From assembly GCF_057098645.1 (NCBI RefSeq), contig NZ_CM169472.1: a DNA stretch of 64,000 bases. One strand, 5' to 3'. A program made the position numbers. This document shows, one piece after another, positions 47,201 to 53,200 of this stretch. Every line of letters begins with the position of its first letter. Position 1 is the first letter of the stretch.

Positions 47201-50200
47201 CACCTCACAGGAAATTATTGCCCTAAGCAAGTGTTGTAACTTTCTTCTGATTTTGTAGAATCGGGTAATTTGGTTAAAAAGCCGCAGCAAGGGACTGTTT
47301 TTGCAGCGGCACAGCGTTCAGACAGTTATTTTGTTAAATGTATTAACATGCTGAGTTTATACGAAAAGATAAAGATAAGGCTGATAATTTTATTTTTATT
47401 GGCAGCACTGTCATTTATTGGCCTTTTTTTCATCATTAACTATCAACTGGTATCGGAACGCGCGGTAAAACGTGCCGATAGCCGCTTTGAACTTATTCAG
47501 AAAAACGTTGGCTATTTCTTTAAAGATATTGAACGTTCGGCCCTGACATTAAAGGACTCACTGTATTTATTAAAAAATACAGAGGAGATTCAACGCGCTG
47601 TGATCCTGAAAATGGAAATGATGCCATTTTTAGACTCGGTGGGACTGGTACTTGATGATAATAAATATTATCTCTTTTCGCGGAGGGCGAACGATAAAAT
47701 CGTTGTTTATCATCAGGAACAAGTAAATGGACCGCTTGTCGACGAGTCAGGGCGGGTTATTTTTGCCGATTTTAACCCATCGAAACGACCGTGGTCGGTG
47801 GCTTCAGATGACTCTAACAACAGCTGGAATCCGGCATACAATTGCTTTGATCGTCCGGGTAAAAAATGTATCTCTTTTACGCTACGCATCAACGGCAAAG
47901 ATCACGATTTGTTAGCGGTGGATAAAATTCATGTCGATTTAAACTGGCGATATCTGAACGAGTATCTTGATCAAATCAGCGCTAATGATGAAGTTCTATT
48001 TTTGAAACAAGGCCATGAGATTATTGCCAAGAATCAACTCGCTCGTGAAAAACTGATTATTTATAATAGCGAAGGTAATTATAATATTATTGATTCTGTC
48101 GATACTGAATATATCGAAAAAACATCAGCGGTGTCAAACAACGCATTATTCGAAATCTATTTTTATTATCCGGGCGGTAATTTATTGAACGCATCAGATA
48201 AACTTTTTTATCTGCCGTTTGCGTTCATTATTATCGTATTGCTGGTGGTTTATTTAATGACCACTCGTGTGTTCCGTCGGCAATTTTCTGAAATGACAGA
48301 GTTGGTTAATACGCTGGCGTTTTTGCCTGACTCAACGGATCAAATCGAGGCTCTGAAAATTCGCGAAGGCGATGCGAAAGAGATTATCAGCATCAAAAAT
48401 TCGATCGCGGAAATGAAAGATGCCGAAATTGAACGGTCAAATAAATTGCTCTCACTGATCTCTTACGATCAGGAAAGTGGTTTTATTAAAAATATGGCGA
48501 TTATTGAGTCCAACAATAATCAGTATCTGGCTGTGGGGATCATCAAACTGTGTGGTCTGGAAGCCGTGGAAGCGGTGTTTGGTGTTGATGAACGCAATAA
48601 AATCGTCAGGAAATTGTGTCAGCGAATTGCTGAGAAATATGCACAATGCTGCGATATCGTGACATTCAATGCCGATCTCTATTTACTTCTGTGCCGGGAA
48701 AATGTACAGACATTTACCCGTAAAATAGCGATGGTAAACGATTTTGACAGCAGCTTTGGCTACCGCAATCTGCGCATCCATAAGTCTGCCATTTGTGAAC
48801 CTTTGCAGGGAGAAAACGCCTGGAGTTACGCAGAAAAACTGAAACTGGCGATTTCCAGTATCCGTGACCATATGTTCTCAGAGTTTATTTTCTGTGATGA
48901 CGCGAAACTCAACGAAATAGAAGAGAATATCTGGATTGCGCGTAATATTCGCCATGCAATGGAAATTGGCGAACTATTCCTCGTCTATCAACCGATCGTT
49001 GATATTAACACCCGCGCCATTCTGGGCGCGGAGGCGTTGTGCCGTTGGGTGTCTGCGGAGCGGGGGATCATTTCACCGCTGAAGTTCATTACCATTGCTG
49101 AAGATATCGGGTTTATCAATGAGCTGGGTTATCAGATTATTAAAACGGCAATGGGTGAATTCAGACATTTTAGTCAGCGTGCGTCGCTGAAGGATGATTT
49201 CTTACTGCATATTAATGTTTCGCCCTGGCAGTTAAACGAACCGCACTTTCATGAGCGTTTTACCACCATCATGAAAGAAAATGGCCTGAAGGCGAACAGC
49301 CTCTGTGTTGAGATCACTGAAACCGTGATCGAGCGAATTAATGAACATTTTTATCTCAATATTGAACAACTGCGTAAACAAGGGGTACGGATATCGATTG
49401 ATGACTTTGGCACCGGTTTGTCAAACCTGAAACGTTTTTATGAAATTAATCCAGACAGCATAAAGGTGGACTCGCAATTTACCGGCGATATTTTCGGTAC
49501 TGCGGGAAAAATTGTGCGCATTATTTTCGACCTGGCACGCTATAACCGGATCCCGGTGATTGCGGAAGGCGTAGAGAGCGAAGACGTTGCGCGCGAATTA
49601 ATCAAATTAGGATGTGTTCAGGCTCAGGGGTATCTGTACCAGAAACCCATGCCATTCTCCGCCTGGGATAAAAGTGGAAAATTAGTAAAAGAGTAGTTTA
49701 CGTATGTCCAGAATCAATAAGTTCGTACTTACAGTCAGTCTGCTGATTTTTATCATGATTTCAGCAGTTGCCTGCGGGATCTACACTCAAATGGTAAAGG
49801 AACGGGTGTATGGCCTGAAACAGTCCGTTATTGATACTGCTTTTGCGGTGGCAAATATTGCTGAATATCGGCGTAGCGTGGCAATTGATCTTATCAATAC
49901 GCTAAATCCCACGGAGGAACAGCTGTTGGTTGGCTTACGCACAGCTTACGCTGACTCGGTTTCACCCTCTTATTTGTACGATGTCGGTCCTTATCTGATT
50001 TCCAGTGACGAATGTATTCAGGTAAAGGAGTTCGAGAAAAATTATTGTGCAGATATTGTGCAGGTTGTGAAGTATCGACATGTCAAGAATACAGGGTTTA
50101 TCTCTTTTGACGGTAAAACCTTCGTCTATTATCTCTATCCGGTAACTCACAATCGTAGTCTGATATTTTTGCTTGGTCTGGAGCGTTTTTCTTTACTGTC

Positions 50201-53200
50201 AAAATCGCTGGCGATGGACAGCGAGAACCTGATGTTCTCTCTGTTTAAGAACGGTAAACCGGTGACCGGTGATGAATATAATGCTAAAAACGCCATCTTC
50301 ACCGTTTCGGAAGCGATGGAGCACTTCGCCTATTTGCCGACCGGATTGTACGTATTTGCGTATAAAAAAGATGTTTATTTGCGGGTCTGTACATTGATTA
50401 TTTTCTTTGCCGCATTGGTGGCAGTGATATCGGGTGCCAGTTGCCTCTATCTGGTACGCAGAGTGATTAATCGTGGTATTGTGGAGAAAGAAGCCATTAT
50501 TAATAACCATTTTGAACGCGTACTGGATGGCGGGCTTTTCTTTTCGGCTGCCGATGTCAAAAAACTCTACAGTATGTATAACTCGGCGTTCCTGGACGAC
50601 CTGACCAAAGCAATGGGTAGAAAATCCTTTGACGAAGATTTAAAAGCGCTGCCGGAAAAAGGCGGTTATTTGTGCCTGTTTGACGTCGATAAATTCAAAA
50701 ATATTAACGACACCTTCGGTCATTTGCTGGGCGATGAAGTGTTGATGAAAGTGGTGAAAATCCTTAAATCACAGATCCCGGTAGATAAAGGTAAAGTCTA
50801 CCGCTTCGGCGGTGACGAATTTGCGGTGATTTATACGGGTGGAACGCTGGAGGAGTTGCTATCGATTCTAAAAGAAATCGTTCATTTCCAGGTGGGAAGC
50901 ATTAATTTAAGCACCAGTATCGGTGTAGCGCATTCAAATGAATGTACTACCGTCGAACGATTGAAAATGCTGGCGGATGAGCGGCTGTATAAGAGTAAGA
51001 AAAACGGCAGGGCACAGATTAGCTGGCAGTAATCATTATTCGCAGGCCGGACAAATGATTTTGCCCGGCCTGAATTAATTAAACCCGGCTACCCCACAAA
51101 TCGTACTCATCGGCGTGCTCGACTTTCACACGCAGGATATCACCCGGCTTAACGTTGGTTTCACCATTGAGATAAACCGCACCGTCGATTTCCGGTGCAT
51201 CTGCCATGCTGCGACCAATCGCGCCTTCTTCGTCCACTTCGTCGATAATCACCAGAATTTCACGGCCCACTTTCTCTTGCAGGCGCTCGGCGGAAATCTG
51301 CTGCTGCAGCTGCATGAAACGGTTCCAGCGTTCTTCTTTCACTTCTTCCGGAACCTGGTCAGGCAGGGCATTGGCGTCTGCACCTTCAACCGGGCTGTAT
51401 TTAAAGCAGCCAACGCGATCCAGACGCGCTTCTTTCAGGAAGTCGAGTAGCATCTGGAAATCTTCTTCCGTCTCGCCAGGGAAGCCGACAATAAAGGTTG
51501 AGCGTAGGGTCAGTTCCGGGCAGATTTCGCGCCACTGTTTGATGCGCGCCAGTTGGCGATCTACAGAACCCGGACGCTTCATCAGTTTGAGAATGCGCGG
51601 GCTGGCGTGCTGCAACGGAATGTCCAGATACGGCAGGATTTTGCCTTCCGCCATCAGTGGGATGACGTCGTCCACATGCGGATAAGGATAAACATAGTGC
51701 AGACGTGTCCAGATCCCCAGTTTCGATAACTGTTCGCACAGGCTGACCATGCTGGTTTTTACCGGCTCGCCGTTGTGGAAGCCAGTACGATGTTTAACAT
51801 CAACGCCATAGGCGGAAGTATCCTGCGAGATCACCAGAATCTCTTTAACGCCCGCATCTACCAGACGTTTCGCTTCACTTAACACTTCGCCAATCGGACG
51901 GCTCACCAGGTCGCCGCGCATAGACGGAATAATGCAGAAGGTGCAGCGGTGATTACAGCCTTCAGAAATTTTCAGATAGGCATAATGACGCGGCGTCAGT
52001 TTGACACCTTGTTCTGGCACCAGGCTCAGGAATGGGTTGTGTTTCGGTTTTGGCACGTAGTGATGAACGTGCTCCAGAACCTGCTCATAGCTATGAGGCC
52101 CGGTGATTTCCAGCACTTTCGGGTGGACTTCGCGGATCTGATCTTCTTTTGCCCCCAGACAACCGGTCACAATTACCTTGCCGTTTTCATTCAACGCTTC
52201 ACCAATGGCTTCCAGTGATTCTTGTACCGCGCTGTCAATAAAGCCGCAGGTGTTGACTATCACCATGTCCGCATCGTCATAGCTCGGTACCACGTCATAA
52301 CCTTCAGTGCGTAGTTCGGTGAGAATACGCTCTGAATCAACAAGGTTTTTCGGACAGCCAAGGGAAACAAAGCCGATTTTCGGCTGGGGAGTTACTTTGC
52401 TCATAGCTTAAAAAATATTCAGTTACAGGAAAGGTCAGGGCAGGGATTCTACAGAGTTCTGGATAAAATTTGTATCGCAATCTCATTCGCTGGCGGAGGC
52501 GAAGGAAATGTAAATTTTGTTAATTCGGCGTGAAGAATTGATCCTGGACAGCATTTTGCTCAAAAAATAGCCATACTATTTAATTGCAACAAGGCTGGAA
52601 AGAGGAGGATCGAAGTATGTTCGTTGACAGACAGCGAATCGATCTGCTGAACCGGTTGATCGACGCACGCGTTGACCTCGCCGCATACGTGCAACTGAGG
52701 AAGGCAAAAGGATACATGTCCGTCAGCGAAAGCAATCATCTACGAGATAACTTTTTTAAACTGAATCGCGAACTGCACGATAAATCGCTGCGGTTGAATC
52801 TTCATCTGGATCAGGATGAGTGGAGTGCTCTTCATCATGCTGAAGAAGCATTAGCGACAGCCGCAGTATGTTTGATGAGTGGGCACCATGATTGCCCGAC
52901 TGTTATTACCGTCAACGCCGATAAGCTTGAAAATTGTCTGATGAGCTTAACGCTGAGTATCCAGAGCCTGCAGAAGCACGCCATGCTTGAGAAGGCCTGA
53001 AAACTAAGGGGGAGAAAGCGTCTCCCCCTTCATGTTTAAGTTTTTGTAAAAATGAATTTGTTATCTCCTCCACTGACTACGCTTTAAGCCAGAGTCAATC
53101 CGGAGGCGTTATGCATCGACAATTCTTTTTCCTTGTGCCCCTTATTTGTCTTTCTTCCGCTCTCTGGGCGGCTCCTGCAACGGTAAATGTCGAAGTACTG

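Follow-up and report, generated by a model that had tools for sequence, protein, structure and literature searches.

Evidence for horizontal acquisition of the pdeI-dgcI operon of Escherichia coli, and a predicted division of c-di-GMP breakdown and synthesis between its two products

How two membrane-bound enzymes predicted to act in opposite directions on cyclic di-guanosine monophosphate (c-di-GMP) came to lie side by side in an AT-rich segment of the Escherichia coli chromosome, and what the first of them does when published results point both ways, are the questions raised by the pdeI-dgcI locus. The locus was analysed in a stretch of 64,000 nucleotides from contig NZ_CM169472.1 (NCBI RefSeq assembly GCF_057098645.1), the whole of which is referred to below as the window. 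The genes pdeI (formerly yliE; 47348..49696, + strand, 782 amino acids) and dgcI (formerly yliF; 49704..51032, + strand, 442 amino acids) are found between gsiD and rimO, dgcI starting 7 bp past the stop codon of pdeI. We consider it probable that they form a horizontally acquired operon of the core genome and encode two opposed c-di-GMP sensor enzymes.

Positions 46800-51500 were 100% identical to E. coli O145:H28 chromosomes (RM9872 and relatives), in which the RefSeq gene order is gsiD, pdeI, dgcI, rimO. The limits 47348-51032, the gene identities, the tandem arrangement, the EAL domain in PdeI, the GGDEF domain in DgcI and the membrane anchoring proposed in a first-pass annotation of the window were all recovered, two hydropathy transmembrane segments being found in each protein. 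Of 5,426 complete E. coli genomes, 5,425 had the region and 5,380 had at least 80% of it, and the pair is an already known core-genome operon of the species. Its K-12 counterparts are YliE (b0833) for PdeI and YliF (b0834) for DgcI; the present names are said to come from the c-di-GMP nomenclature of Hengge et al. in 2016. The K-12 pair shares the gsiD-pdeI-dgcI-rimO locus and the protein lengths (782 and 442 residues), and the proteins of the window are about 99% identical to those of the main E. coli clusters. The window carries the O145:H28 allele and otherwise shows no substantial difference from K-12. An open reading frame (ORF) of 808 codons (47270..49696, TTG start) was rejected: it arises by purely mechanical lengthening at the 5' end, and the orthologues in E. 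albertii and E. fergusonii start with the methionine encoded by the ATG of position 47348.

The low G+C content (GC) claimed for the pair by the first-pass annotation was borne out, so that the condition named there as refuting it did not hold. GC was 41.6% for pdeI (45.3% at third codon positions, GC3) and 43.5% for dgcI (GC3 49.5%), against a mean of 52.4% (standard deviation 3.0) and a GC3 of 57.4% (standard deviation 4.6) for the 48 other annotated genes of the window, which corresponds to z-scores of -3.6 and -3.0; GC1, GC2 and GC3 were all depressed in both genes. The 3,685-bp region of the pair had 42.3% GC compared with 51.0 ± 2.6% in non-overlapping segments of equal size from the 64 kb, and only 0.8% of equal-size segments were as low, every one of them in the espX2/IS2 region. 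Along the sequence, GC fell from 56-58% to 30-42% within 200 bp past the gsiD stop codon and returned to 52-57% inside rimO. The low GC is not a membrane-protein effect, because the neighbouring membrane-protein genes gsiC (53.5%), gsiD (52.7%), mdfA (52.3%) and ybjJ (55.3%) have normal values.

The gsiD/rimO site was compared among the matches listed by a RimO search of the genome collection, a sample that held no Salmonella or E. fergusonii loci. The genes gsiD and rimO run toward each other and stop about 45-110 bp apart in Citrobacter werkmanii (L011), in Mangrovibacter (L016) and in two species of Enterobacter (L009, L013), and the bare spacer contains a GC-rich hairpin only; in E. albertii (L007), dgcI and pdeI stand between gsiD and rimO as they do in E. 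coli. The C. werkmanii hairpin (GTAGGCCGGATAAG...CTTACCCGGCCTAC), which is the sole content of that spacer, is similar to one found in the window next to the rimO stop codon (Table 1). The latter is probably the ancestral bidirectional terminator of gsiD and rimO, of the repetitive extragenic palindrome (REP) type, and the right edge of the insertion. Since this hairpin was kept beside rimO in E. coli, the point of insertion is placed after the gsiD stop codon and before the former terminator. Horizontal acquisition in the ancestor of Escherichia, the older origin that had been suggested, is thus supported by composition and by syntenic absence, though not by mobility genes or repeats (see below).

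The content of this convergent spacer varies between taxa. In E. albertii NBRC 107761 (L007, 2016-2729) an extra ORF of 237 codons, resembling a HEAT-repeat 'putative lyase', was seen between rimO and dgcI. Superficieibacter electus (L008, 11448-14286) is without the pair and carries other genes at the site, about 3 kb in all, including a 229-codon ORF homologous to that of E. albertii, and about 0.9 kb occupies the spacer of Enterobacter sp. Ag1. On the other side of the locus, bssR (52617..53000) had been described as adjacent to the pair and, by implication, linked to it in function. It is indeed nearby, but rimO stands between, and because the bssR-rimO neighbourhood, with bssR upstream of rimO, also occurs in genera without the pair, the proximity was attributed to inherited synteny and bssR was rejected as a functional neighbour.

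Relatives of PdeI form a small family that is almost confined to Escherichia. When the part of the protein outside EAL was searched exhaustively with HMMER, 55 matches were obtained among 1.84 billion representative proteins, mostly fragments of the Escherichia protein. Of 76 matching plasmid records, 75 were from Escherichia. The other relatives, divergent at 28-44% identity, were found on Escherichia IncHI1B and IncFIB plasmids, on plasmid-like contigs with Rep3, CcdAB or KfrA genes, on an island with a relaxase and an integrase, and on an E. ruysiae contig. In all seven lineages the next gene in order after the PdeI homologue was a GAPES2-GGDEF gene on the same strand. Neighbour-joining trees of the PdeI and DgcI homologues had identical topology, and the pairwise identities of the PdeI and DgcI partners (36/40, 30/33, 35/38 and 88/86%) were correlated with r = 0.996. 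The 7-bp gap of the window is replaced by an 11-nt overlap in lineage L087.

In three lineages (L087, L005/L006 and L095) the pair lies directly upstream of bcsA, whose product has a PilZ domain, and bcsB; in E. ruysiae (L095) the pdeI-like and dgcI-like genes, bcsA, bcsB and bcsC follow one another on one strand with short gaps. Because several pairs of the family are directly upstream of accessory bcsA-bcsB genes, the original job of the pair was probably the control of cellulose synthase. YliE and YliF homologues at the accessory cellulose clusters bcs2-4 have already been described in a 2025 preprint (10.1101/2025.05.09.653004, Romling and colleagues). Gene order, domain composition, invariant EAL and GGDEF residues and AT-richness are common to these pairs and the chromosomal one. 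The bcs2-4-linked pairs differ in their 28-44% identity, in their GC of 33-35% and in their position beside bcsA-bcsB(-bcsC), insertion sequences, integrases or plasmid replication genes, whereas the chromosomal pair has no c-di-GMP effector adjacent to it. AT-richness is taken to be a long-standing trait of the family, since the mobile pairs stay at 33-35% GC even beside bcs genes of 46%; the 40-42% of the chromosomal copies fits partial drift toward host composition.

Some of the mobile copies are irregular. A PdeI-like protein encoded on the E. coli IncFIB plasmid pTB402 (L089, 6503-8851) has about ten 'INS' tripeptide repeats in its first sensor module, and the contig of a close relative (P0146) ends just past that point. 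On two metagenome contigs with Rep3, integrase and IS66 genes (L091, 6001-9675; L092, 4857-8531) the PdeI-like gene is represented by three ORFs (CHASE9, 195 residues; unassigned, 295 residues; EAL, 248 residues) and the downstream GAPES2-GGDEF gene is intact (443 residues), so that the phosphodiesterase half appears to be decaying and the cyclase half to be kept.

From its sequence, PdeI is predicted to be a c-di-GMP phosphodiesterase with a catalytically complete EAL domain. Pfam EAL (PF00563) matched residues 532-767 over the full length of the profile (234.6 bits, cut-off 31.3), and the domain aligned to solved EAL phosphodiesterases with E-values of 1e-44 to 1e-28. Residues E562, A563, L564, R566, N623, E655, E658, D685, D686, K706, E743 and Q760 are invariant in the seven PdeI lineages, down to 28% identity. 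The loop 6 motif of EAL domains is DFG(T/A)GYSS; PdeI has DDFGTGLSNL, in which the DFGTG core is kept and YSS is changed to LSN, the L being conserved across the family. In a published table for YliE of CFT073 the EAL catalytic residues are all consensus (PMC3484386).

The domain that precedes EAL in PdeI has a GGDEF fold according to structure comparison of a predicted model. Residue positions in it were read from the hhalign register, and the fold was tested separately by structure. In that register D327, D329, N335 and D344 of DgcI correspond to K400, C402, E408 and N417 of PdeI. Across the seven lineages the position of the GGDEF signature is occupied by NADLY, NSNTY, SSDLY, STETY, NKNKY, SDKIF or SPYKY, and the metal- and guanosine triphosphate (GTP)-binding positions vary as well. 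The domain therefore has neither a GG(D/E)EF motif nor conserved metal and GTP residues, both expected of an active cyclase, and is predicted to be catalytically dead, which excludes direct synthesis by this domain as far as sequence can.

DgcI has transmembrane segments at residues 8-26 and 224-250 by hydropathy, with about 197 periplasmic residues between them, and an intact GGDEF domain. In ten sequences, down to 33% identity, D327, D329, N335, D336, H340, D344, R367, G369-F373, K432 and R436 are invariant; their roles in metal and GTP binding are presumed from PleD-type cyclases. The cysteines C104 and C115 (window 50013-50048) are also invariant in the ten. An RxxD product-inhibition site, which is common in the family and not defining, was not found at the expected offset before the DgcI motif, and the inhibitory site of YliF is listed as non-consensus in the CFT073 table (PMC3484386). 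Under standard conditions the DgcI protein reportedly escapes detection and its promoter has very low activity, and overproduction of DgcI is toxic (PMC5635695). Both the toxicity and the undetectability would agree with an uninhibited cyclase, a connection that is our own. Homology between the PdeI and DgcI sensors was considered and dropped, hhalign of the PdeI periplasmic domain against GAPES2 giving a probability of 0.08%.

The periplasmic region of PdeI is as large as the first-pass annotation had claimed (about 255 residues). Pfam detects only its first part, as CHASE9 (PF17153, residues 35-150, 210 bits). In the predicted model, a long N-terminal helix is followed by two PAS-like alpha/beta modules, and the whole matches solved double-Cache (dCache) domains structurally. 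Pfam dCache_1 gave no match to PdeI at E <= 1, and a profile of the sensor searched against PDB sequences reached only E = 1.6, to the dCache cyclase 7k5n. The amino-acid-binding motif of dCache_1AA domains consists, in PctA, of Y121, R126 and W128 followed by Y144 and D173, with 13-17 residues between the halves (PMC8915833). Judged from sequence register and the secondary structure of the model, the PdeI counterparts would be F142, R147, W149, Y164 and D197, the halves lying 15 residues apart; four of the five residues would be retained, with Y changed to F. The full set of five occurs in paralogues L087 and L096, and the motif is lost in lineage L089. Relative to the dCache_1 domains of PctA, McpU, PctD and CqsR, PdeI thus differs by F142 at the position of PctA Y121 and by two cysteines near the motif tyrosine. 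These, C166 and C174 (window 47843-47869), lie on either side of the loop that follows Y164. They vary in none of the lineages examined and are 8 residues apart; those of DgcI are 11 apart. We know of no earlier proposal of disulfide or redox control for either protein. No Pfam match to the CSS-motif domain of the PdeC type was obtained in PdeI, whose cysteine pair sits in the dCache fold. The linker that follows the second transmembrane segment is labelled HAMP in the preprint (10.1101/2025.05.09.653004). Pfam HAMP gave no match to it at E <= 1, and the model shows long helices at low confidence (predicted local distance difference test score, pLDDT, 35-65).

LapD-type receptors consist of a periplasmic domain, HAMP, a degenerate GGDEF domain and EAL, and the EAL domain of LapD is catalytically dead and binds c-di-GMP. 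PdeI differs in keeping every EAL catalytic residue and in its dCache periplasmic domain, and it scored 55.8 bits against the NCBIfam LapD model, the cut-off of which is 1020. Caulobacter PdeA (CC3396) and E. coli DosP and PdeR are like PdeI in having a dead or divergent GGDEF domain before an active EAL domain, and the NCBIfam DosP and GepA alignments span both cytoplasmic domains of PdeI (residues 388-770 and 377-774). The GGDEF domain of PdeA still binds GTP; because the corresponding residues are all replaced in PdeI, GTP control of PdeI is unlikely. PdeI also has a periplasmic dCache input in place of PAS or haem domains.

Selection on the pair was estimated from the ratio of nonsynonymous to synonymous substitution rates (dN/dS) against E. 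albertii, which was 0.077 for pdeI and 0.048 for dgcI, with 0.002 to 0.037 for the flanking genes. The pdeI domains tested ranged from 0.04 to 0.08, the degenerate GGDEF domain having 0.082. The pair is clearly constrained, though evolving faster than its neighbours, and is therefore not decaying. The pdeI gene of the E. albertii type-strain draft (L007, about 6300-6330, - strand) is frameshifted when compared with the intact 782-residue protein P0002 and continues from about codon 27 as ...GLFLLSIIS*; it may be a true pseudogene, or the shift may be a sequencing error in a homopolymer.

Under the reading that we favour, an AT-rich segment of about 3.9 kb entered the convergent gsiD/rimO spacer in an Escherichia ancestor and has since been held by purifying selection. 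Both of its products are inner-membrane proteins. PdeI is a chain of periplasmic dCache domain, second transmembrane segment, helical linker, dead GGDEF fold and complete EAL domain; DgcI, with GAPES2, a transmembrane helix and a complete GGDEF domain free of the product-inhibition site, would make c-di-GMP. Each protein may respond to a periplasmic cue of its own. The signal received by PdeI would pass through the linker to the dead GGDEF domain, which may act as a regulatory hinge that switches hydrolysis by EAL, and the G412S change within this domain would activate PdeI genetically. Together, the two proteins would make up a two-input make-and-break switch, which probably served at first for local c-di-GMP control of an accessory bcsA(PilZ)-bcsB synthase and which, in the chromosomal copy, has no adjacent target.

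Some published results agree with the predicted direction of PdeI. Its overexpression blocks phage N4 as does that of six other phosphodiesterases (PMC7553319). According to the accounts that later papers give of Reinders 2016, a strain deleted for pdeH regains motility through suppressor mutations in pdeI (cited in PMC12890032) and G412S lowers c-di-GMP (cited in PMC11651652).

Other points weigh against the reading of two opposed enzymes on an acquired segment. Overexpression of PdeI raised c-di-GMP about 11-fold, as measured by HPLC-MS/MS, high-performance liquid chromatography with tandem mass spectrometry (Yan et al. 2024, PMC11651652). The level of PdeI fused to blue fluorescent protein (BFP) correlated positively with a c-di-GMP sensor, a correlation that was lost in the G412S variant (PMC11651652). 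The model of the PdeI middle domain is only moderately confident (mean pLDDT 62.6), and hhalign of that domain against a 61-sequence GGDEF alignment gave a probability of 0.7% (E = 0.085), so that sequence alone lends no homology support. At the chromosomal site no mobility genes are annotated, and a repeat search of the insertion borders returned only short, chance-level repeats and no flanking ones. Lastly, the family may have maintained its AT-richness, which would then not be a donor signature alone.

The least improbable alternative is that PdeI raises c-di-GMP indirectly, as a ligand-dependent activator or anti-inhibitor of DgcI or of another cyclase, the pair working as one complex. It would reconcile the phosphodiesterase-like result with phage N4 and the rise reported in PMC11651652, and the constant tandem order and congruent trees in seven lineages, the short or overlapping gaps and the purifying selection on the dead GGDEF domain (dN/dS 0.082), which is expected of an interaction or regulatory surface, are in keeping with it. 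Co-inheritance is, however, equally expected of independent antagonists in one operon, and in the published two-hybrid survey DgcI could be used in one vector orientation only, owing to its toxicity (PMC5635695). On balance we regard such a complex as unlikely.

Yan et al. 2024 proposed that PdeI itself makes c-di-GMP, using its divergent GGDEF domain. Direct synthesis of this kind would account at once for the 11-fold rise, for the positive BFP correlation and its loss in G412S (PMC11651652), and the fold suggested by the model of the middle domain agrees with it. We nevertheless find it quite improbable. The signature is NADLY, the metal and GTP positions (K400, C402, E408, N417) drift among the seven lineages while the EAL residues are invariant, and the phage N4 resistance is identical to that given by six other phosphodiesterases. 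G412S was isolated, by the second-hand account, as a motility-restoring change that lowers c-di-GMP. The strains of Yan et al. 2024, moreover, retained the chromosomal dgcI and all other cyclases, which makes an indirect effect possible.

As to origin, the pair could be ancestral to the Enterobacteriaceae and lost elsewhere, its low GC being a functional or compositional constraint; the chromosomal site, bare of mobility genes and flanking repeats, and the paralogue pairs that hold 33-35% GC beside 46% GC bcs genes would agree with this. Set against it are the junctions with a hairpin only at the four loci of non-Escherichia genera, the near absence of PdeI sensor relatives beyond the small family (exhaustive HMMER), the location of all other members on plasmids or islands near integrases, transposases or relaxases, and the lowering of GC1, GC2 and GC3 alike, and an ancestral pair is accordingly quite improbable. 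That both genes are silent, decaying remnants, as might be read from the undetectable DgcI and the very weak promoter under standard conditions (PMC5635695), the truncated variants in databases and the E. albertii frameshift, is very improbable, given a pair that is intact in the window and at least 80% complete in 5,380 of 5,426 genomes, dN/dS values of 0.05-0.08 with invariant catalytic residues, the deletion and insertion phenotypes published for uropathogenic E. coli, and the induction at 37 °C (PMC12890032) and in a biofilm subpopulation (PMC11651652).

A more elaborate proposal may be added, which we regard as unlikely. PdeI and DgcI would act not as two independent enzymes but as one sensor complex whose parts evolve together and which at first gated an accessory cellulose synthase; the dCache pocket (F142, R147, W149, Y164, D197 and a C166-C174 disulfide) would bind an amino acid or a related amine-carboxylate, both cysteine pairs would confer DsbA-dependent redox control, and the published rise in c-di-GMP on PdeI overexpression would come from action of the dead GGDEF domain on DgcI.

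Returning to the operon as we favour reading it, expression of both genes is higher at 37 °C than at 23 °C (PMC12890032), and this induction, together with the AT-richness, suggests H-NS-type silencing as a candidate cause of the low, temperature-dependent expression. A fragment of 250 bp upstream of pdeI has served as its native promoter (PMC11651652). A scan of promoters and terminators gave counts not above those of shuffled sequence. In vitro genomic systematic evolution of ligands by exponential enrichment (gSELEX) with RpoN gave a weak peak inside yliE facing yliF, at K-12 coordinate 874568 (PMC8743547), which would point to transcription of dgcI from a sigma-54 promoter inside pdeI; a search with a loose sigma-54 consensus returned 289 matches where 334 were expected by chance, and neither supports nor refutes this peak. 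No RNA family was found by an Rfam scan of 46500-53200 at E <= 0.1.

Table 1. Positions in the window of the domains and sequence elements of the pdeI-dgcI locus
Feature	Coordinates	Strand	Remarks
gsiD-pdeI intergenic region	47171..47347	+	Left end of the AT-rich insert, presumed pdeI promoter region; GC 30-42% per 100-bp step
Sigma-70-like site, TTGTAA-16 nt-TAGAAT	47234-47261		Consensus match only; such sites are no commoner than in shuffled sequence
PdeI transmembrane segment 1, residues 12-30	47381..47437	+	Kyte-Doolittle score 3.1 (19-residue window)
PdeI periplasmic sensor, residues 31-285	47438..48202	+	Double-Cache fold (predicted model), about 255 residues between the transmembrane segments
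PdeI transmembrane segment 2, residues 286-304	48203..48259	+	Hydropathy score 2.79
PdeI cytoplasmic helical linker, residues 305-365	48260..48442	+	Region of signalling-helix or HAMP-like type
PdeI degenerate GGDEF-fold domain, residues 366-525	48443..48922	+	NADLY (441-445) at the GGDEF position; holds G412
PdeI EAL domain, residues 532-767	48941..49648	+	Complete set of catalytic residues
DgcI GAPES2 periplasmic sensor, Pfam residues 26-229	49779..50390	+	PF17156, 471 bits
DgcI GGDEF catalytic domain, residues 295-437	50586..51014	+	Intact RFGGDEF; PF00990, 89.3 bits (cut-off 23.8)
GC-rich hairpin CAGGCCGG ... CCGGCCTG	51043..51072	.	Between the dgcI and rimO stop codons

Several features elsewhere in the window were recorded. 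The espX2 region (3248-6900) is its most AT-rich stretch (GC 41.2% across 3.7 kb, falling to 34% in some 1-kb segments) and was probably acquired horizontally too. An IS2 at about 4450-5780 interrupts espX2, a type III effector gene, leaving fragments at 3789..4649 and 5668..7137; the IS2 ORFs (4483..5388 and 5346..5756, - strand) matched NCBIfam IS2 TnpB with 725 bits and IS2 TnpA with 276 bits. At this site the window carries 1,336 extra bases relative to RM9872, which is consistent with an IS2 of 1,331 bp and a 5-bp target duplication, and the insertion looks strain-specific, positions 3150-7450 being covered to at least 80% in 0 of 5,426 complete genomes. The alignment offset to RM9872 also shifts by 12 bp between about 15.0 and 16.5 kb, with a cluster of mismatches from about 15961-15963 (fiu-mcbA), and the two sequences differ at a few single bases, so that the window derives from a close relative of RM9872 and not from RM9872 itself. 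The lowest gene GC measured in the window (40.9%, GC3 43%) belongs to a gene of 183 codons between rcdA and ybjL (62389-62940, - strand), which is annotated as a serine acetyltransferase and falls below the curated cut-offs of the EpsC, CysE and WcaB models.

Earlier publications already cover the genes and the types of domain they encode, their weak expression, and the mobile relatives next to cellulose synthase operons. The dCache assignment with its partial amino-acid motif, the argument for a dead GGDEF domain, the congruent partner trees and the exact insertion point are additions of this analysis and do not change the category of the locus. As the outcome of a genome scan the pair matters little, and what it offers to the c-di-GMP field is two modest points. 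The first is that the reported "c-di-GMP synthetase" activity of PdeI would have to be indirect, because its GGDEF-like domain is devoid of catalytic residues and drifts between lineages while EAL is invariant; a candidate source of the rise is the always-linked partner DgcI, which was present in the strains of Yan et al. 2024. The second is that the modelled dCache domain of PdeI appears to keep most of the universal amino-acid-binding motif, which would provide a short, testable list of candidate ligands.

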